Part shown: one piece after another, positions 14,110-54,045 of the stretch
Numbering within the stretch: the stretch's first letter is position 1
How the letters are laid out: each line of letters begins with the position of its first letter
Assembly: GCA_046329875.1 (NCBI GenBank)
Contig: JAXLTT010000001.1
Coordinates: 205,619-269,618, forward strand
From: Bacteroidales bacterium
GTDB taxonomy: Bacteria; Bacteroidota; Bacteroidia; Bacteroidales; VadinHA17
Direction: 5' to 3'
Length of the DNA: 64,000 nt
Notes under the pieces: model-generated
What the model saw: the letters and a program-made list of their open reading frames with translations, nothing else
Told to the model about the DNA's origin: nothing
Database searches by the model: none
Made by a program: the position numbers and the translations under genes

Positions 14110-15216
14110 TCAGTTCTCCCTGTAAATAGGAAAGTCGACAACCTTTGCTTTAAGGTCTTTATTCCTTATCCTGATATATATTTCAGAACCGGTTTCCCAG
14201 AAGCCAGGCTTAAGATAGGCCATGCCTATTCCTGCCTTCATCATTGGCGACATTGTACCTGATGTGACTTCCCCGATAACTGAACCTTTGTCATCAACAA
14301 CTTCATAATGCTGCCTGGGTATTCCCCTGTCAATCATCACAAAGCCCCTTAGTTTTCTTGATACCCCTTCTTTCTTCTGGGCAGCAAGTAATGGCTTATC
14401 AATAAAATCTTTCTTATCACTGAATTTGGTTATCCACCCAAGACCAGCCTCGATAGGTGAAGTTGTATCATTTATATCATTTCCATAAAGACAATAGCCC
14501 ATCTCGAGCCTGAGCGTATCCCTTGCACCGAGTCCTATCGGCCTTATTCCGTATTCTTTCCCGGCTTCAAAAACAGCTTTCCAGAGTTTGGGTCCATCCT
14601 CGTTTTTTACATATATCTCACAACCTCCTGATCCTGTATAGCCGGTTGTGGAAAAGATCACATCTTTTATACCGGCAAAATCGATAACCTTAAATGTATA
14701 GTAATCCATGTTTGTGACAAGTTCACCGGTAAGTTTCTGCATAGCTTTCAATGCAAGTGGCCCCTGTATGGCGAGCTGTGCTGTCTGGTCTGAAATATTC
14801 ACGAGATCCTTCCCTGTAACAAGGTTGAACCTTGAAGCATTTGAAACACACCAGTTCCAGTCTTTTTCAATATTTGCAGCGTTAACAACAAGCAGGTATT
14901 TCTCCTGGTTGTACCTGTAAACAAGGAGATCATCAACAATCCCTCCCTTGCCGTTAGGAAAGCATGAATACTGAACTTTCCCGTCGAAAAGGGCAGCAAC
15001 ATCATTTGAAGTCACATACTGGATAAAACTGAAAGCATTGGGCCCGGTAACCATGAATTCACCCATATGGGAAACATCAAACACACCAAGTTTTTCCCTT
15101 ACTGTGACATGTTCTTCATTAATACCACTATATTCAACCGGCATGTTGTAGCCGGCAAACGGGACCATTTTGGCACCCATTTCAATATGGAACTGTGTGA
15201 ATGCTGTATTTTTCAT
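14110..15216 (-). CDS. gcvT: Glycine cleavage system aminomethyltransferase T
   Basis: 368 aa with a GcvT-like sequence throughout ([25 protein letters not shown]). Confidence 0.94.
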
Positions 15217-22696: not shown

Positions 22697-23829
22697 TTAG
22701 ACGTTAATTCCTGTTTTGTTTCTGCTGCCACTGTACAGATCATAACGGTCAAGCCTGCACCAAGTGCCCTGCTAAAGAGAACGTGCTTTGCAGAGGGTTT
22801 AAGGCCAATGAAGTGTTGATTCCCTGTCAGATGATATAATCCATGCAGTAAATCCTCAAAGCAGTCAGGTATCGTCATCATCGAATACAGGTCATTTGTT
22901 TCACCTTTGTGCAAGTCTCTGCCATATGGCGGTTCATAATAAGCACCTTCTCACAGCAGCAATATGTCCTGAAATCAAATGGGCGCTTGTTTCACAAGGT
23001 CCCCACTCCTGTCGCTTTAAGGTTTACTTTCGTATTGTTTATCGCTTCCTGCGAAGATTCCGAACAAAAAATTGGTCTGCAGTTTCCATGACTGATCCTC
23101 GAATCATATTTCTCCACAATGAGTTCCAGAGCCTCGAATCAAAATCAATCCAGCGGAAGGCAAAATAATTCCTGAATTTACCAGGAGGTGTCCCGGTGGT
23201 CATAAGGGTCATTCTCTAATTGCAATTGTCCCGGATCCGCACATAGATCAGATCAGCGGGCATTTCATATCCCATCCCGACATCCTTATCATCCCGGCAG
23301 CCAGGGCTTCATTAAGCGGGGCAGCAGACTTTAATATCCTGTATCCCCTCATGAAGAGAGGGTCACCTGAAGAATCGAGAGATATAGTAACCGTATTGTG
23401 ACTGATATGGAGGTTTACAATAATATCCGGATTGACTGTATTTACTGATGGCCTCTTTCCTCCCTTCTTCCTGAAATAATCAGCAATTGCGTCTTTCACC
23501 TTAAGTGCCGCAAATCCAGTATGATTGAAAAGATCAGATTTCACAACAGGCACAACTGAAAAGGTCTCGTCAACCTTCATATACCTGTCCCATTTTACCC
23601 TCATTGCCCCGTTGTACAGGTCTTCAACCGACTTTATCCTGAAATTTGAAACTTCGACCAGAAATGAGAGGGCGGTTCGCGACATGTAATTCACAGTATA
23701 AAGCAGTGGCAGCTCACCTTCAAAAATGACAGCCCTGTTGGCAACTGTTACAGAGGAGGCTCCTAATTCCTTCAGTTCAGCTGCAACTGTGTTTTCCAGC
23801 CCGAATAATGTCTTTGCAATAATCTTCAT
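22697..23829 (-). pseudogene. THUMP-domain class I SAM-dependent RNA methyltransferase. The N-terminal 193 codons are intact and the C-terminal part is frameshifted.
   Basis: An intact THUMP part occupies 23248-23829. After that, MCGSGTIAI, MTTGTPPGKFRNYFAFRWIDFDSRLW, YYEPPYGRDL...IGLKPSAKHVLF and RLDRYDLYSGSRNK are spread over different frames with internal stops. Confidence 0.78.
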
Positions 23830-23843
23830 CCTTCAACAACTGA

Positions 23844-23871
23844 CCTTTCGCCTTTTGCCGTTCGCCTTTAC
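23844..23871. repeat. Solo heptamer array (CCTTTCG CCTTTTG CCGTTCG CCTTTAC)
   Basis: Four tandem 7-mers lie in the 38-nt gap between the methyltransferase start and the S41 peptidase stop, running into that stop codon. Confidence 0.7.
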
Positions 23872-25461
23872 TTATTGCCAAGCAGCCTGTTGTATTCATT
23901 TTTATCAGCAAGTACCTTCAGCGCCTTTTCTATTACAGGATCTCCTTCATTAATAATTCTGAAGTACTCGTTAACCTGCCACAGGTTAGATGCCATAATA
24001 GCCTTAAGGAGTTTAAGAATCTCGTCCTTTGATGTCTCAAACTGTTTTTCGTTGAACTTCACACCAGCATCTTCACCTGCTTTGATGAACTGTTTGATTT
24101 CATCCTGTGTGAAAGAAAACTTCGCTTTGTATTCATCGAAACTCTTATATGTTGAAAGGAGACGTTTGCTCCTTTATCTGAATATTCAAGTGTGTATGAG
24201 TTAAATACACTTTTCCTTATAAGATTGCCATAATAATCAGTATAGAATGATGTATCTGTTTGGCATGAAAACATCTGGTAATAAGACCACCTCCACCGTA
24301 TACCTTACGCTTATTGGCAAGGGTATTATACTTCAATAATCCGAAATGGATGCTGTCAGTAAACTGGGTCTCCTCGTCGGAGAACCTCTTGTAATAGTTT
24401 TCCATGTATTTTGCATAGCCATCCTTATACGGGCTCTGAATTGACCTTCCTGTTGGTGTGTAATAACGTGCAATCGTAAGTCGTATCTGGGAGCCGTCGG
24501 TAAGTGAATAACCATTCTGGACAAGTCCTTTGCCAAATGTACGTCTTCCCACAAGGACACCCCTATCCCAGTCCTGCATGGCACCTGCAAGTATTTCGCT
24601 TGCTGAAGCTGATCCTTCATCAACGAGAAGCACAAGCCTTGCTTTAGTGAGAATTCCCTTCCCTGTGGAGCGATACTCCTCCCTCGGGATACTGCGGCCT
24701 TTCATATAAACAACGAGCTTCTGCCCATCCAGAAACTGGTTTGCTATAGCCACGGCTGCAAGCATATAACCTCCGGGATTTCCCCTGAGGTCGATAATTA
24801 TATTCTTCAGAGGTGAGCCTTCAAATTTGCGGAGACCGTCAAAGAATTCCTGTTCTGTGGTGGCGGCAAATTTATTCAGCTTTATGTATCCTGTTTCGGG
24901 GGTGAGCATATAGGCTGCATCAAGACTGAAAATGGGAATTTTGTCCCTTGTGATTGTATAGACCTGTACATCCCTGGCACCATCTCTCAGAATACCTACA
25001 TCAACCTTTGTACCTTTAGGTCCCATCAGGCGCTGCCTTACCCCTGCTGTCGAAATCTTGATTCCTGCCACCTTCTCGCTGTTTATTGTAACGATCCTGT
25101 CACCGGCTTTCAGCCCTATCTTTTCTGATGGCCCGTTTTTCAAAGGCTCAATAACTATAACTGTATCGTGAAGTATATTGAACTGTATCCCTATGCCTTC
25201 AAAATTTCCGGCAAGAGGTTCATTCATCTCTTTCACATCTTTGGCTGAAATGTATGATGAATGCGGGTCCAGAGAATGGAGTATATCAACAATGGTTTTC
25301 TCTGTTATTGCATTCATGTCAGTGGAATCGACATAAAAGGCGTCTATGAGGCCAAGCATTTTACCAATCTTGAAAGTGTTTTCACTCAGAACCTGTCCGT
25401 TGAGTGATACAGAAAGCATTACGGATAAAGCCGTAATAACCAGAAGCAATTTTCTTTTCAT
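23868..25461 (-). pseudogene. S41 family C-terminal processing peptidase (PDZ-containing), apparently frameshifted near the 3' end
   Basis: The track splits it into three ORFs (24217-25461, 24059-24274, 23868-24062). Reading VYGGGGLI / PDVFMP / DTSFYTDYYGNLIRK...EYSDK / RSKRLLSTYKSFDEYKAKFSFTQDEIKQFIKAGEDAGVKFNEKQ needs at least three frame changes between about 24150 and 24295. Catalytic-region motif GSASASE is present. Confidence 0.8.
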
Positions 25462-30485: not shown

Positions 30486-30536
30486 ACTTTTTATTTTGAA
30501 TATAAATGGAATACGAGACTTATTTTCACCATGTTA

Positions 30537-30635
30537 GTCGTGCCGGTCGTGCCGGTCGTGCCAGTCGTGCCAGTCGTGCCAGTCGTGCCGGTCGTGCCAG
30601 TCATGCCAGTCGTGCCAGTCGTGCAGGTCCTGCCA
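30537..30635. repeat. Tandem 9-bp array (GTCGTGCCR, 11 units): left arm of four-helix-bundle cassette 1
   Basis: Counted directly as 11 contiguous 9-mers with a few substitutions (GTCATGCCA, GTCGTGCAG, GTCCTGCCA). Confidence 0.9.
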
Positions 30636-30698
30636 GTTATGAATTGGTTTAATCGAGGCAGATATCGTAACTTTATAAATTAATTAACTCGTGCTAAA

Positions 30699-31091
30699 AT
30701 GGGAACAATTAAGAATTTTGAAGAACTGGCTGTCTGGATTATGGCCAGGGAGATCGCGAATGATATCTACTCAGATCTAAAGAATTGCAGAGATTTTGGA
30801 TTCAGAGATCAGATCACAAGAGCTGGTATTTCGATAATGAATAATATCAGCGAGGGTTTTGGTCGCAATAGCGATACGGAGTTCAGACACTTTCTCAATA
30901 TTTCCAAAGGCTCTGCAACAGAAGTTAAGAGTATGTACTACATTGCTGAAGACCAGGAATATGTCAGTCATGAGACGTCACAGAAAATGCGTGATAAACT
31001 GCAAAGGCTTATTAACAGTCTCGGAACCTTTATGAAGTACCTTAATTCCTCACGACCAGCCCGACCTGCCCGACCTGCAAGACCTGCATGA
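30699..31091 (+). CDS. Four-helix-bundle protein (23S rRNA intervening-sequence protein / Avd-like family)
   Basis: 130 aa with QITRAGISIMNNISEGFGR...FRHFLNISKGSATEV, typical of this family. The C-terminal SRPARPARPARPA is encoded by the right repeat arm. Confidence 0.85.
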   Translation: MGTIKNFEELAVWIMAREIANDIYSDLKNCRDFGFRDQITRAGISIMNNISEGFGRNSDTEFRHFLNISKGSATEVKSMYYIAEDQEYVSHETSQKMRDKLQRLINSLGTFMKYLNSSRPARPARPARPA

Positions 31092-31137
31092 CCCGCAAGA
31101 CCGGCACGACCTGCAAGACCTGCAACACCTGCACGAC
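31053..31137. repeat. Tandem 9-bp array (CGACCTGCA-like, about 9.4 units): right arm, inverted relative to 30537-30635
   Basis: The reverse complement of the unit, once rotated, reads GTCGTGCAG against GTCGTGCCA in the left arm, so 7 of 9 positions per unit are complementary. It overlaps the last 39 nt of the CDS. Confidence 0.88.
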
Positions 31138-45165: not shown

Positions 45166-45239
45166 GGTGCGGTAGTTCAGTTGGTTAGAATATCGGCCTG
45201 TCACGCCGGGGGTCGCGGGTTCGAGTCCCGTCCGCACCG
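45166..45239 (+). tRNA. tRNA-Asp (GTC)
   Basis: A manual cloverleaf fits: acceptor GGTGCGG/CCGCACC, anticodon stem TCGGC/GCCGG, loop CTGTCAC, and T arm GCGGG-TTCGAGT-CCCGT. 74 nt in total. Confidence 0.93.
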
Positions 45240-49942: not shown

Positions 49943-49984
49943 CCTTTCGCCTTCTGCCTTCCGCCTTCCGCCTTCTACCTTACT
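49943..49984. repeat. Solo heptamer array (CCTTYYG-like, 6 units)
   Basis: CCTTTCG CCTTCTG CCTTCCG CCTTCCG CCTTCTA CCTTACT. It overlaps the stop codon of the 49980-51905 gene. Confidence 0.8.
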
Positions 49985-51905
49985 TTACAACCAGCTTGTT
50001 ATCTATCAGCCTTTCATTATAGGTCTGCATAACGGCTTTGAGTTTCTGTTCCATTTTTGCCTGCAGCTCAGGTACCTTTCCGATAAGGTTATTTGTAAGG
50101 AACCTGTCCTTCTTCAGGTTGAAAATAGCAAGGGATTTGTTATCCATCACTTCGAGAATGTGATCTTCCATAAACAGGTAATAGTTGCTCCCGAAGGTAT
50201 TGAAACCGAATGTTTCCTTTGACTCATCAAGGAGGTTGTTTCCGAAAGCGATGAATTCACCATCCCAGTTGAGATAGCTTAAAACAGTAGGCATTATATC
50301 TATCTGCTGGGCAATTTTTTTGCTGTAGCCTTTCAGATCGCTGTTGTGCTGGTAAAAAAGGATAGGTATGCTGAATTGTCCGTATGCGTTCTGGAATTCC
50401 CTGTGGAACTTCTCGTTTGTATGATCGGCCGTGATTACAAAAAGTGTGCTGTCAAACCATGGCATCTTCTGAGCCTCTTTAAAGAATTCCATGAGTGCAT
50501 GATCGCTGTATGCAATTGTCTGGCAGATAGGGATTGGTCCCTTGGGGAACTTTCCTTCATACTGTGCCGGTACCTTGAATGGATGATGTGATGAAAGGGT
50601 GAAAACTGAGGCCATGAATGGTCTCGGGAATTCATTCAGCTTCTTTGCGAAGAACTGCAGGAATGGCTCGTCCCATAAGCCCCATACCCCGTCAAAATCA
50701 TTTCCATCGGGGTATTCGTCCTTCCCGATATAGCTGTCAAAACCGGCCATTTTCGAAAATGAATCGAAGCCCATTGAACCATTTGGCGCACCATGAAAGA
50801 AAGCTGAATAATAGCCTTTCCTTTTCAAAAGTGCAGGGAGACCGTTTATTTCATCATTTGCATAATGTGAGATTATATACGGTGTTTCGAGAGATGGCAT
50901 TGATGCAAGAATGGAGGGCATTGCATCAATCGATTTGTTACCGTTTGCAAGGCTTATATCGAAGGTTAGTCCCTCGGCAAACAGTGAATCAAGGAAAGGT
51001 GTGTAGCCCTTGTAAGTGCCATTATCAAGATCCTTATTGAAAAACCCAGTGTACTCTTTTGAAAAACTCTCAAGAATAAGCACCACAACATTCAGTTTCT
51101 TGAACAGCTTTTCGGGCTTATATGAATAATGCGGGTCATAAATTTCCCTTAGTTGGCTGTCATCGAAATAATTGTATTTGACCAGGTTCTTCTTTCCCCA
51201 GGTACGCAGAATACTGAAAGGAGTGTTCAGCACTATCGGTACATATCTCGGGTTGTCGACATACCTTGCTGCATTGCTTATAGTTATGGGTCTCGTAGAG
51301 TGCCTGTAACCACCCCTTGCTGCCCCTATACAGAGGAAGAGGATAAGCGGCAGAAAGAGGAAATTCACACCAAAATACCCAATACGTTTACTTACAACAG
51401 GCTTAACAGGTTTAATCCTGTTATATAAAACAACCATAAGTACAATAAGAAACAGGGTTATAAGTGTTGCAGGCCAGTAATCTATAAGAAAGCGGAAAAA
51501 CAGTTTGCCGTTATTCTCCTCGTTGGCGAAGGTTCCGAAAACATCTGATGTTGCCCTTTTTGTAAGGAACCTGAAGTATACATAATCGGCACCGTTCATA
51601 CATATCATAATACCTGTGAAGATGAAATATATATACTTCATAATCCCCTCGTATATCCGAGAATACCGGAAGTCAAAAGGAAGTAATTCAAGTATTATAA
51701 AGAGTGAATTGAAATAAACAACTGCTGCAAGGTCAAATACAATTCCTCCTCTTAAGGCATGCAAGAGCTGGACAAACCTGATGTCGGGAAACATCATGTG
51801 ATTGAACAGATAAAACCCGATACGCGAGAGAGTGAGAAGAAACAGTGCCAGCAGCACCCTGTAAATGAATACTATAATAATATTCCTTGAAAAAAGCCAT
51901 TTCAT
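49980..51905 (-). CDS. LTA synthase / sulfatase-family membrane protein (phosphoglycerol-transferase-like)
   Basis: 641 aa with five or so N-terminal TM helices and an alkaline-phosphatase-superfamily domain. Confidence 0.82.
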   Translation of the reverse strand: MKWLFSRNIIIVFIYRVLLALFLLTLSRIGFYLFNHMMFPDIRFVQLLHALRGGIVFDLAAVVYFNSLFIILELLPFDFRYSRIYEGIMKYIYFIFTGIMICMNGADYVYFRFLTKRATSDVFGTFANEENNGKLFFRFLIDYWPATLITLFLIVLMVVLYNRIKPVKPVVSKRIGYFGVNFLFLPLILFLCIGAARGGYRHSTRPITISNAARYVDNPRYVPIVLNTPFSILRTWGKKNLVKYNYFDDSQLREIYDPHYSYKPEKLFKKLNVVVLILESFSKEYTGFFNKDLDNGTYKGYTPFLDSLFAEGLTFDISLANGNKSIDAMPSILASMPSLETPYIISHYANDEINGLPALLKRKGYYSAFFHGAPNGSMGFDSFSKMAGFDSYIGKDEYPDGNDFDGVWGLWDEPFLQFFAKKLNEFPRPFMASVFTLSSHHPFKVPAQYEGKFPKGPIPICQTIAYSDHALMEFFKEAQKMPWFDSTLFVITADHTNEKFHREFQNAYGQFSIPILFYQHNSDLKGYSKKIAQQIDIMPTVLSYLNWDGEFIAFGNNLLDESKETFGFNTFGSNYYLFMEDHILEVMDNKSLAIFNLKKDRFLTNNLIGKVPELQAKMEQKLKAVMQTYNERLIDNKLVVK

Positions 51906-52033
51906 GATCGTGAAGATAGCTTTTTTTGGCTACCTTTAAATAGACTGTGAAAGGATTTGTCGGTTCAGTTTGTTACAGAATCAATTATACAGCATTGTTA
52001 AATCACTGGTTGCCCGTTTTGCCATGTGACTGA

Positions 52034-52096
52034 CCAGGCGGAAGCATGGAAAAACCAGTGGTTTTTCCATGCAAGGTAAAAGTAAAAAGTAAAAAG
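52034..52096. repeat. 63-bp direct repeat, copy 1 (contains the 27-nt palindrome 52045-52071 and the purine heptamer arm)
   Basis: Identical to 52513-52575 except for one base at the palindrome centre (AGT versus ACT). Confidence 0.9.
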
Positions 52097-52103
52097 GAAA
52101 AAG
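52073..52103. repeat. Left arm of four-helix-bundle cassette 2 (purine-rich heptamers)
   Basis: AAGGTAAAAGTAAAAAGTAAAAAGGAAAAAG pairs at 26 of 31 positions with 52469-52499 by manual alignment. It ends 9 nt before the ATG. Confidence 0.85.
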
Positions 52104-52112
52104 TATTGAAAG

Positions 52113-52466
52113 ATGAAAGACAATGATCTTAAAGAGAGGCTTTTTCATTTTGCAACAGGAGTTTTAAAGTTGCTTGGAGAGATCAAAGGTGGCAAAGAAA
52201 TTGATGTGGTTAAATACCAATTATCAAAATCAGCCACATCTGCTGGTGCAAATTATGAAGAAGCTCAAGGTTCTGTGTCAAAAGCTGAATTCATCAGTAA
52301 AGTCAGCATATCGTTAAAGGAGATGAGGGAATCGCATTACTGGCTAAGAATCATAAAAGATTTGAACAAAACTGTGGAGAAAACTGAAAAGATGTTAAAC
52401 GAAAGTGAGGAATTAGGTAAAATATTAGCATCTATTTTAATAAAAGCACGATCAAACCCTTCCTGA
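52113..52466 (+). CDS. Four-helix-bundle protein (23S rRNA intervening-sequence protein / Avd-like family)
   Basis: 117 aa with QLSKSATSAGANYEEAQ...SKAEFISKVSISLKEMRESHYWLRII, typical of the family. Confidence 0.85.
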   Translation: MKDNDLKERLFHFATGVLKLLGEIKGGKEIDVVKYQLSKSATSAGANYEEAQGSVSKAEFISKVSISLKEMRESHYWLRIIKDLNKTVEKTEKMLNESEELGKILASILIKARSNPS

Positions 52467-52468
52467 CA

Positions 52469-52499
52469 CTTTTGCCTTTTACCTTTTACCTTTTACCTT
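52469..52499. repeat. Right arm of four-helix-bundle cassette 2 (CCTTTTA heptamers)
   Basis: CTTTTGCCTTTTACCTTTTACCTTTTACCTT starts 2 nt after the stop codon. Confidence 0.85.
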
Positions 52500-52512
52500 A
52501 CCACGAAGTGGT

Positions 52513-52575
52513 CCAGGCGGAAGCATGGAAAAACCACTGGTTTTTCCATGCAAGGTAAAAGTAAAAAGTAAAAAG
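52513..52575. repeat. 63-bp direct repeat, copy 2
   Basis: See copy 1. A third, degenerate copy lacking the palindrome lies at about 52623-52682. Confidence 0.9.
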
Positions 52576-52593
52576 AGGGCCGAGCGTTAATAA

Positions 52594-52613
52594 ACAGCCC
52601 GATGGGCTGTTTT
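52594..52613 (+). terminator. Putative intrinsic terminator after cassette 2
   Basis: ACAGCCC-gat-GGGCTGT followed by TTT. Confidence 0.55.
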
Positions 52614-52710
52614 AGTGAGGAGCCAGGCTGCAGGGAGGGCCAGAGCAAGGTAAAAGTTAAAAGGTTAATGTAAAAAGTAAGGAACTTATTACTTACTTTT
52701 AGGCACTGGA

Positions 52711-54045
52711 ATGAAAAAGATACTTATTACGGCACTCCTTGTACTTGCTGCAACCTGCGGCTGTAAAAAATACTATCCGACAAACCTCAATTATCCTGTC
52801 CCCGACTGGACTGAAGCGACTCACAGTAATTCAGTGGATCCAAACTACGACGTTGTTTTTGAGGAAGGTGTTGTTCACCGGGTTGACATGAAAATATCCC
52901 AGGCCGACTGGACAACAATGCAGAATGATCTTAAGGCAAATATAAAACCCGGACAGCCGATCAGTGAAAGCTGGGATCCGGTGACAGTACCATGCTCTTT
53001 TTTTTACAACGGTAAGGAATGGTACAAAGTGGGTGTCAGGTACAAGGGGAACTCAAGCCTTAAAGTATGCGTTTCAGGTAATATTAAGAAATACTCATTT
53101 AAGCTGGAGTTTGATCACTTTGAGGATCAGTGGGCATCAATTAAAAACCAGCGCTTCTACGGTTTTAAAGAACTGAACCTTACAAACGGTTTCAGTGATA
53201 ACAGCCTTATGAGAGAAAAGACAGGCGCAGATCTTTTCAGGGAATTCGGAGTAAAAGCACCAAGAGCAGTATTCTGCGAAGTATGGGTTGACTGTGGTAC
53301 TGGTCCATCCTATTTCGGCCTGTATACACTCGAAGAGATTGTCGAAGATGCGGTTATCAAAACCCAGTTCACCGATGGCGGAAATCTATATAAACCTGAA
53401 GGGCTTGCTGCTTCATTCGCGAACGGGACTTTTAATACGAGCCAGTTGTACAAACAGACAAACGATGACGGGGACTATTCTGATATAAGGAACCTGTACG
53501 ATATAATCAACAGCGGTGCAAGAGTCACAAACTACAGCAACTGGAAAACTGCACTTGAAAACAGTTTCAATGTGAATGCATTTCTTAAATGGCTGGCTGC
53601 CAATACTGTTATGCAAAACTGGGATACCTATGGTAAACAAACGCATAATTACTACCTGTATAATAACCCGGCAGATTCAAAGCTTACCTGGATACCATGG
53701 GATAACAATGAATGCCTGTCCACAGGAAAAAACGGAGGAGCTCTTGGTCTCTCGCTTGATATGGTCGGACCTGGCTGGCCGCTTATAAGATATATACTCG
53801 ACGATCCTGACTATTATTCTGCTTACAAAACTTATGTTTCCCAGTTTGCTACTACAGTATTTTCAATAGCTTCATTCCAGGCAAGGGTTGAGGCCCAGGC
53901 CGACCTAATCCGCTCAAAAGTAAATGCTGAAATTACCGGATATACCTTTCTTAAGACAAAGGATGATTTTGCTATTGCAACAGACCAGCTTAAACAGCAT
54001 GTTCAGAACAGAGCAGATTCTGTGTTTACTTTCTTGGCAAAATGA
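52711..54045 (+). CDS. CotH kinase family lipoprotein
   Basis: 444 aa with a lipoprotein signal (LAATCGC) and a CotH-like core (YHNYYLYNNP, WIPWDNN). Confidence 0.8.
   Translation: MKKILITALLVLAATCGCKKYYPTNLNYPVPDWTEATHSNSVDPNYDVVFEEGVVHRVDMKISQADWTTMQNDLKANIKPGQPISESWDPVTVPCSFFYNGKEWYKVGVRYKGNSSLKVCVSGNIKKYSFKLEFDHFEDQWASIKNQRFYGFKELNLTNGFSDNSLMREKTGADLFREFGVKAPRAVFCEVWVDCGTGPSYFGLYTLEEIVEDAVIKTQFTDGGNLYKPEGLAASFANGTFNTSQLYKQTNDDGDYSDIRNLYDIINSGARVTNYSNWKTALENSFNVNAFLKWLAANTVMQNWDTYGKQTHNYYLYNNPADSKLTWIPWDNNECLSTGKNGGALGLSLDMVGPGWPLIRYILDDPDYYSAYKTYVSQFATTVFSIASFQARVEAQADLIRSKVNAEITGYTFLKTKDDFAIATDQLKQHVQNRADSVFTFLAK

Follow-up and report, generated by a model that had tools for sequence, protein, structure and literature searches.

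Introduction

Intervening sequences (IVSs) which contain an open reading frame (ORF) occur in the 23S rRNA genes of Leptospira, Coxiella burnetii, Xanthomonas and Brucella. To our knowledge, they have been on record for about 30 years with no explanation of the function and origin of the proteins that they encode. Here, we describe a cassette of similar plan which is located outside an rRNA gene, in a 64,000-nt stretch of the metagenome-assembled genome of a Bacteroidales bacterium (VadinHA17; GenBank assembly GCA_046329875.1, contig JAXLTT010000001.1, positions 205,619 to 269,618 of the forward strand), referred to below as the window. The cassette consists of a gene for a 117-aa four-helix-bundle protein between two inverted arrays of heptamers, and it lies between a sulfatase gene and a CotH gene. 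The likeness of its gene family and layout to 23S rRNA IVSs was missed in the first-pass annotation of the window.

In the C. burnetii IVS, three or four tandem GACAGAT heptamers, their number varying among strains, are located just upstream of the ATG of S23p, and RNase III cuts the 28-bp terminal stem at the first heptamer (PMC4990558). The window cassette shares with the rRNA IVSs the PF05635/TIGR02436 protein, the order of purine-rich heptamers just 5' of the ATG, ORF and complementary arm, and termini able to form a stem of about 30 bp. It differs in its position in the sulfatase-CotH spacer and in having a conserved leader motif of its own. Moreover, its protein is under purifying selection (dN/dS, the ratio of nonsynonymous to synonymous substitution rates, 0.10), unlike the decaying ORF of the Coxiella IVS. 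The same four-helix-bundle superfamily includes Avd, the accessory protein of diversity-generating retroelements (DGRs; PDB 4DWL and 8UB7), which is a pentamer binding RNA by all five protomers. However, the identity with Avd in the structural alignment is only about 17-20%, and avd genes have not been reported with flanking heptamer arrays. Neither a reverse transcriptase nor a template/variable repeat pair was found near the window gene. Since the window element lies outside an rRNA gene and is accompanied by no DGR parts, we class it apart from both systems, as a variant.

Other heptamer repeats have also been described. The intergenic TAACTGA repeats of Beggiatoaceae, Cyanobacteria and some Bacteroidetes occur as 2-6 tandem copies near start codons, are gained or lost between close relatives and break assemblies (PMC4679880). 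The class-3 sites of Geobacter metallireducens are 8 inverted pairs of 'five tandem heptanucleotide repeats' proposed to bind a regulator (PMC2700814). The units in the window are of a different type (AAG-N4), and in Geobacter the two members of a pair enclose no ORF, being separated by only about 100 bp. The searched text and supplements of these two papers (PMC4679880, PMC2700814) contain no mention of S23 or four-helix-bundle genes. The RAYT/REPIN systems are similar in that a small gene is bracketed by inverted copies of a short repeat which is also scattered, solo or in pairs, in intergenic regions. The window cassette nevertheless encodes no Y1 (IS200/IS605-like) transposase, has tandem heptamer arrays instead of REP hairpins, and its palindrome has no dispersed copies in the window or in the metagenomes scanned. 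Avd, the protein family and rRNA IVSs that combine heptamers with a terminal stem are thus already known; a description of free-standing PF05635 cassettes with inverted five-unit arrays was not found in the open-access literature searched.

The cassette in the sulfatase-CotH spacer

The sulfatase gene (49980-51905, minus strand) and the CotH gene (52711-54045, plus strand) are divergent, and the spacer between them contains the following features.

52024-52045 (+): leader motif ATGTGACTGACCAGGCGGAAGC, with a GC-GGAA-GC (GNRA) mini-hairpin at 52038-52045
52044-52072 (+): palindrome P1, GCATGGAAAAACC-AGT-GGTTTTTCCATGC, RNA hairpin of -18.1 kcal/mol
52073-52103 (+): left arm A1, AAGgtaaAAGtaaaAAGtaaaAAGgaaaAAG, five AAG cores at 7-nt spacing, ending 9 nt 5' of the ATG
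52113-52466 (+): gene for the 117-aa four-helix-bundle protein (PF05635/TIGR02436, the 23S rRNA intervening-sequence protein family)
52469-52499 (+): right arm A', a series of five CTT cores spaced by 7 nt, inverted complement of A1, beginning 2 nt past the stop codon
52500-52512 (+): small hairpin ACCAC-GAA-GTGGT between A' and the second 63-nt copy
52513-52575 (+): second 63-nt unit, comprising part of the leader, then P2 (palindrome at 52523-52551, loop ACT), then array A2 (52552-52575, four AAG cores)
52576-52644 (+): unique spacer with a GC-rich hairpin, AACAGCCC-GAT-GGGCTGTT, at 52593-52611
52645-52684 (+): third array A3, five core positions of which one is degenerate (ATG at 52668), 34 nt 5' of the CotH ATG
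52689-52700 (+): short anti-arm TTACTTACTTTT, pairing with the end of A3 (52673-52684; 92% complementary)

The gene was assigned to its family by matches of the protein to PF05635 (58 bits, cutoff 33.8) and TIGR02436 (76.2 bits, cutoff 24). The NCBI record for the identical 117-aa protein, encoded on a 493-kb contig, reads "four helix bundle protein", and precomputed PF05635 matches exist for 1145 homologues. The AlphaFold2 model (mean predicted local distance difference test score, pLDDT, 92.8) consists of four helices at residues 3-23, 28-52, 57-84 and 88-114. The best structural matches obtained with Foldseek were 2RLD (BT_0352, TM-score 0.79-0.87) and 2GSC (XCC0516, 0.80-0.83), and Avd was matched as well; phmmer also linked the protein to 2RLD (E = 6e-17). 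The PDB entries 2RLD, 2GSC and 4DWL contain five chains each, and a homopentameric ring is predicted for the 117-aa protein from these homologue structures.

The Rfam gathering-threshold scan of the whole window returned a single tRNA and no rRNA. The cassette is therefore not located within a 23S rRNA gene, where IVSs occupy helix 9, 25 or 45; its neighbours code for the sulfatase and CotH. When this region and seven related loci were scanned against Rfam by E-value, only weak look-alikes of miRNAs, leaders and sRNAs were returned, all far under the cutoffs, and PADLOC and PHROGs gave only marginal, uninformative matches. Promoter-like matches in a sigma-70 scan, performed with a tool which does not model Bacteroidota promoters, were no better than those in shuffled sequences. 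No terminator was detected in the region; the hairpin at 52593-52611 failed the scan, with only four T past its stem.

The gene, arms, 63-nt repeat and palindromes had all been noticed in the first-pass annotation, and each was found at, or within a few bases of, the position given there. The arms, reported as pairing at 26 of 31 positions, are complementary at 27 of 32 (84%; 52073-52104 vs 52468-52499). The palindrome, read as 27 nt at 52045-52071, extends to 29 nt in both copies, with stems of 13-14 bp. The 63-nt direct repeats (52034-52096 vs 52513-52575) are identical at 62 of 63 positions, and the only difference between P1 and P2 is their centre base, G vs C. A third, degenerate copy of the unit had been proposed at about 52623-52682. 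Its arm part exists as A3, with 40 nt that share 80% identity with the arm portion of the 63-nt unit, whereas the leader similarity in front of A3 is not significant, as 598 of 2000 shuffles score equally well.

The heptamer arrays and the 63-nt unit are the only repeats in 51900-52800. The pattern AAAGN3 x4 with at most one mismatch was found seven times in the window and never in 100 shuffles of it, and the palindrome has just two occurrences in the window at up to three mismatches. In these searches, the repeat did not behave as a common dispersed REP-type element: no true copies of the leader/palindrome junction GGCGGAAGCATGKAAAAACC were found elsewhere in the window or in the JGI metagenomes, where the scan gave four matches, all unrelated and lacking the palindrome. 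The extra direct copies, i.e. the second 63-nt unit and then A3, are tandem leader-array modules. Recombination or slippage between arrays probably generated these copies and can also resolve them; a classical target-site duplication or an inversion switch is improbable.

Conservation of the layout across the gene family

Each species was represented by one genome in the scan, which yielded 556 confirmed relatives of the gene. The best 80 loci, which encode proteins 49-64% identical to the query, were analysed; they span Bacteroidota, Ignavibacteriota, Chlorobiota, Calditrichota and others and are denoted here, with further comparison loci, by L numbers. Gene starts in them were set by homology. 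All 80 were picked by similarity to one protein and arrays were counted within 3 kb of a family gene, so that the share of solo arrays given below is not a genome-wide estimate.

The order of arm, ORF and inverted arm, which had been noted as common to this cassette and to a second one in the window (cassette 1, described below), turned out to be recurrent. Flanking sequence of sufficient length was available for 94 family genes; arrays with four or more AAG cores bracket 51 of them on both sides and accompany 22 on one side only. The arrays are also strongly oriented: the purine-rich strand is the sense strand upstream of the gene (70 vs 7) and the antisense strand downstream (67 vs 7). In 530 kb, AAG chains with exact 7-nt spacing contained three cores in 51 cases, four in 51, five in 106, six in 17 and seven in 10, while spacings of 5, 6, 8 or 9 nt produced almost no chains of four or more cores. 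Five is the mode in the 5' arms (36 of 70), in the 3' arms (43 of 67) and in the solo arrays (34 of 71). Within the units, the AAG core is invariant and the four spacer positions are variable. It was suggested in the first-pass annotation, from the unrelated repeat sequences of the two window cassettes, that the requirement is structural rather than sequence-specific. This is not supported: within this protein subfamily, the AAG core, the strict 7-nt phase and the modal count of five are conserved across many species, and complementarity at the variable positions is specific to the locus only to a small degree.

A minority of cassettes carry other cores, e.g. AAT, and their proteins are mutual nearest relatives; protein clade and core type (AAG vs AAT) thus go together. 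Copies on Nostoc and Geminocystis plasmids are built on the same plan from GGGAAAA/CCCTTTT-type units, and a Riemerella plasmid copy from AAGGTTT units. The count of five is strong in the AAG subfamily but not universal, since cassette 1 is built of 10-11 nonamers and the number of units in other clades is 3-7. A direct connection to the rRNA IVSs is provided by plasmid AZO_p2 of Azospirillum lipoferum 4B (NC_016586.1, about 14340-14810; L097), where an unannotated PF05635-like ORF is located in a 23S rRNA gene between GAGGACG-type heptamer arms. Its flanks read as the helix-45 region of 23S rRNA, and judging by these flanks and arms the element is a genuine rRNA IVS which is absent from the annotation of the record. 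According to a manual reading, three of the four mismatches between its arms are G.U in the rRNA sense.

In 15 distinct cassettes of other genomes, the leader motif immediately precedes the left arm and is in sense orientation. In the general form ATGKGACTGACGGGGC-GNRA-GC it occurs at L005:40, L006:694, L007:2899 and 3719, L011:2909, L019:2915 and L029:1710, and further at L035:2917, L049:834, L058:2843, L073:2911, L080:2905 and L098:80. The mini-hairpin has compensatory AC..GT stems in L049 and L035. No Rfam family matches the motif, which may represent a transcript 5' end or a recognition site. In L029, the motif is not followed by an array. Other cassettes carry GCATGCCC or GCATGGCC within the leader motif at the position of the palindrome, and the palindrome is therefore a lineage-specific expansion.

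Several loci depart from the typical plan. Inverted array pairs without an ORF, their arms 17-33 nt apart, occur at L007:2774-2839, L024:4644-4731, L064:2754-2839, L065:608-708 and L078:1953-2017; the pairs at these five loci resemble both the ORF-less rRNA IVSs and the paired five-heptamer sites of G. metallireducens. Family genes occur in tandem within a few kb in L013 (three copies in 3.6 kb), L026, L066 and L068. In a relative (L098:1-720), a 117-aa family member with the leader motif and an AAGACCA-type arm is located upstream of an M16 peptidase-CotH operon and is followed by a very long array of about 16-17 CTTGGGT/CTTTGAT units. Many carrier contigs are only 0.5-1.5 kb long, which suggests that the cassettes break short-read assemblies.

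Alleles of the locus among strains

Comparison of the CotH upstream regions in relatives, which had been proposed as a check, revealed filled and shorter alleles as well as a relative free of the module. In the strains carrying these alleles, CotH is 98% identical and the DNA flanks are 96.6-98.6% identical. Exactly one 479-bp repeat period, gene included, is missing in L085 and L086, which keep a single 63-nt unit. In L087, a further 95 bp comprising A2 and the unique spacer are missing; this segment is bounded by the 13-nt direct repeat GCAAGGTAAAAGT, and in L087 the leader, palindrome and five-core array lie 34 nt ahead of the CotH start. A3 is intact in both L085 and L087, with all five AAG cores. 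The duplicated left end, which had been likened to an insertion or duplication scar, is thus an indel boundary. Events between direct repeats separate the three alleles, with the breakpoints in the directly repeated leader-array modules, and on the strength of these alignments strains of one species are polymorphic for the cassette as an indel. In a more distant syntenic relative the spacer measures 218 bp and is free of any module, and the module was therefore probably acquired in the window lineage, with later loss in this outgroup as the alternative.

The fold predicted for L087 includes the pairing of TTACTTACTTTT with the end of A3. In the window, the A3 end and this anti-arm form a miniature arm/anti-arm hairpin in the CotH leader (52673-52700), just ahead of the start codon.

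A related copy, in L001, encodes a protein with 88% amino acid identity and adjoins a different gene (Fib_succ_major) in other assemblies. Its homology with the window begins about 20 nt 5' of the 63-nt unit and ends with the last base of A'. L001 has a degenerate copy of the palindrome and no leader copy downstream. Between the two genes, dS is 0.6 at the dN/dS of 0.10, and 41% of the synonymous sites differ; as judged by this divergence, purifying selection acts on the protein. Over the 89-nt leader plus arm, the two copies share 87.6% identity, far above the conservation of synonymous sites. By all these comparisons, the unit is kept as a block across the Bacteroidota/Ignavibacteriota group, and it occurs in unrelated genomic contexts.

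A proposed free-standing copy of an rRNA intervening sequence

We regard it as an even chance that the window cassette is a free-standing, non-ribosomal copy of an ORF-containing IVS, with arms that form an RNA duplex for RNase III to cut. The unit comprises the conserved leader, five purine-rich heptamers, the PF05635 gene and the complementary five-heptamer array. By homology with the rRNA IVSs, A1 would pair with A' in the transcript and, in the window allele, P1 with P2, giving a long duplex around the ORF; cutting of this duplex by RNase III would free the cassette RNA from the flanking transcripts.

Several calculations are consistent with such pairing. The A1:A' duplex has a predicted energy of -22.7 kcal/mol compared with -10.1 +/- 2.6 kcal/mol for shuffled right arms. 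Folding of the whole region, another check suggested in the first-pass annotation, gave a minimum-energy structure of -200 kcal/mol (z = -10.5) in which A1:A' and P1:P2 are both paired. Owing to the G/C difference at their centres, P1 and P2 pair perfectly (-51.4 kcal/mol vs 2 x -18.1 kcal/mol for the local hairpins). Across the family, arms from the same locus are more complementary than arms from different loci (p = 9e-10; p = 4e-4 for the variable positions).

Other results weigh against this interpretation. Mismatches between arms show no excess of G.U-compatible pairs in the sense RNA (37 vs 42 and 11 vs 15). Complementarity at the variable positions is 0.667 within a locus, 0.604 in the mirror-order control and 0.545 between loci; since the first value is barely above the mirror control, the arms look conserved as arrays and not as base pairs. 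Solo arrays, which make up 71 of the 222 arrays, are unable to pair, and five is nevertheless their modal count as well. During transcription, each palindrome would fold on itself before the other one has been synthesised. Furthermore, A' forms as good a duplex with A3 (-24.1 kcal/mol) as with A1, and one of -18.0 kcal/mol with A2. As A' pairs equally well with A3 in front of CotH, the cassette could affect CotH expression. The allele pattern is also compatible with insertion and deletion alike. Filled and empty alleles do exist for a target-site comparison, but the 63-nt flanking repeat is part of the cassette leader, and deletion by recombination between repeats therefore explains the alleles equally well.

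The match between the five-core count and the homopentameric homologue structures indicates that the arrays may be protein-binding sites, and the conserved core, fixed phase and fixed count of five are the reasons for keeping a second model, which can coexist with arm pairing. We consider it possible, though doubtful, that the encoded pentamer reads its own arrays, with one AAG core per protomer at 7-nt spacing. The analogy is TRAP with its GAG/UAG arrays, a ring oligomer which takes up one short core per subunit across variable spacers; it is limited to this model, as the TRAP fold is unrelated and TRAP has 11 subunits and spacers of 2-3 nt. In the detailed and equally tentative form of the model, binding to the 5' purine-rich array, as RNA or single-stranded DNA, would be autoregulatory, and the solo arrays before host genes would be targets in trans. 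The chain lengths, which peak at five solely at 7-nt spacing and do so separately in the 5' arms, 3' arms and solo arrays, speak for such a reader, as do the invariant core within variable spacers, the arms without wobble bias and the co-variation of protein clade and core type (AAG vs AAT), although the last is also expected from plain co-inheritance. Five chains are present in each of the closest solved homologues, 2RLD and 2GSC, and 2GSC (XCC0516) has been described as a homopentamer (PMC4990558). In the DGR ribonucleoprotein, every protomer of the Avd pentamer contacts one RNA element and flipped-out bases are held in the crevices between protomers (bioRxiv 10.1101/2023.10.23.563531). The proposal of the inverted five-heptamer pairs of G. 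metallireducens as regulator sites (PMC2700814) points in the same direction. On the other hand, the pyrimidine-rich arm, lying on the same RNA strand, would stay unbound, the proteins have a median net charge of only about +4, and neither the 10-11 nonamers of cassette 1 nor the 3-7 units of the Coxiella, Nostoc and Riemerella copies fit a count of five.

It is improbable, in our estimate, that the arms are the DNA ends or attachment sites of a mobile element which moves between arrays, e.g. as a circle via array recombination. Such mobility would account for the presence/absence breakpoints inside directly repeated array modules, which are explained equally well by deletions between direct repeats, and for the related cassette in another genomic context. 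Tandem cassettes and arrays clustered in the same spacers would also fit, the ORF-less arm pairs look like non-autonomous derivatives, and many carrier contigs end at about 1 kb as if the assemblies broke at repeats. IVSs were proposed earlier to be transposition remnants or mobile elements (PMC4990558). However, the cassette encodes no recombinase or transposase, the 63-bp flanking repeat is unlike a normal target duplication, and L001 lacks the downstream leader copy. Near-identical copies at different sites were not seen either, the closest being 86.6% identical at the nucleotide level.

The first-pass annotation took the palindrome to occur in either orientation. As 29-nt sequences, P1 and P2 are indeed exact reverse complements of each other, able to pair perfectly (P1:P2), and an invertible hairpin switch would produce such a pair. 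Nevertheless, the flanks of both are in direct orientation and the difference is one base of the 3-nt loop, the least constrained position. Because the same locus reads AGT, GGT or ACT in other strains, this is a loop polymorphism and not an inversion; the version in L001 is degenerate, and a flipping switch is very improbable. We give hardly any credence to functionless chance products of simple sequence or slippage, in spite of the AT-rich simple sequence of the arrays and the varying heptamer number among Coxiella strains, given the absence of matches in shuffles, the core-count distribution peaking sharply at five without decay, the orientation bias (70:7 and 67:7) and a leader and arm better conserved than synonymous sites, or, with a sulfatase and CotH as neighbours and no reverse transcriptase or template/variable repeat pair, to a stray DGR Avd accessory gene.

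The results show that the IVS-type unit also exists outside rRNA, at hundreds of intergenic sites in several phyla, and in the window it is placed directly in the 5' region of a host gene (CotH). The question of its function is now testable: the array count points to the pentamer as the candidate reader, and the alleles are natural controls. The results offer a possible explanation for the scattered and enigmatic intergenic heptamer repeats. More speculatively, and in our opinion rather unlikely, PF05635 pentamers and five-unit heptamer arrays would constitute a widespread reader/array system with clade-specific cores (e.g. AAG, AAT, GGGAAAA and GAGGACG). If this were true, the cassettes would carry, spread to or home into arrays; the intergenic heptamers of Bacteroidota, Cyanobacteria, Beggiatoaceae and Geobacter and the rRNA IVSs would be facets of one system; and host 5' leaders, e.g. 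that of CotH, would be under the control of cassette proteins. In annotation, such arrays should be assigned to four-helix-bundle cassettes rather than dismissed as noise, CRISPR-like repeats or assembly artefacts.

Other features of the window

Four further features of the window were recorded.

23845-23869 (-): solo array AAAGGCGAACGGCAAAAGGCGAAAG (AAAGGCG type), about 15 nt upstream of the ATG (23829) of the ORF 23248-23829 (-)
30536-31137 (+): cassette 1, about 11 nonamers AGTCGTGCC, ORF and about 10 inverted nonamers
45166-45239 (+): tRNA gene, the sole Rfam gathering-threshold match in the window
49944-49981 (-): solo array with six AAGG cores (GAAGGCG type), placed past the sulfatase stop codon and 69 nt 5' of the ATG of the following minus-strand gene

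The ORF of cassette 1 (30699-31091, 130 aa) belongs to the same PF05635/TIGR02436 family (TIGR02436, 103 bits) and has a UDP-glucose dehydrogenase gene as a neighbour. Its arms, 88 nt long and 74% complementary, form a duplex of -102.9 kcal/mol, and the ORF overlaps the right array so that its product ends in ...RPARPARPA. Both solo arrays are located far from any four-helix-bundle gene, in sense orientation and shortly 5' of a gene start. The array at 49944-49981 is conserved in L085 and absent in the more distant syntenic L101. According to a manual reading, a 43-aa ORF, MASNLWQVNEYFRIINEGDPVIEKALKVLADKNEYNRLLGNK (23867-23996, minus strand), ends inside the solo array at 23845-23869.

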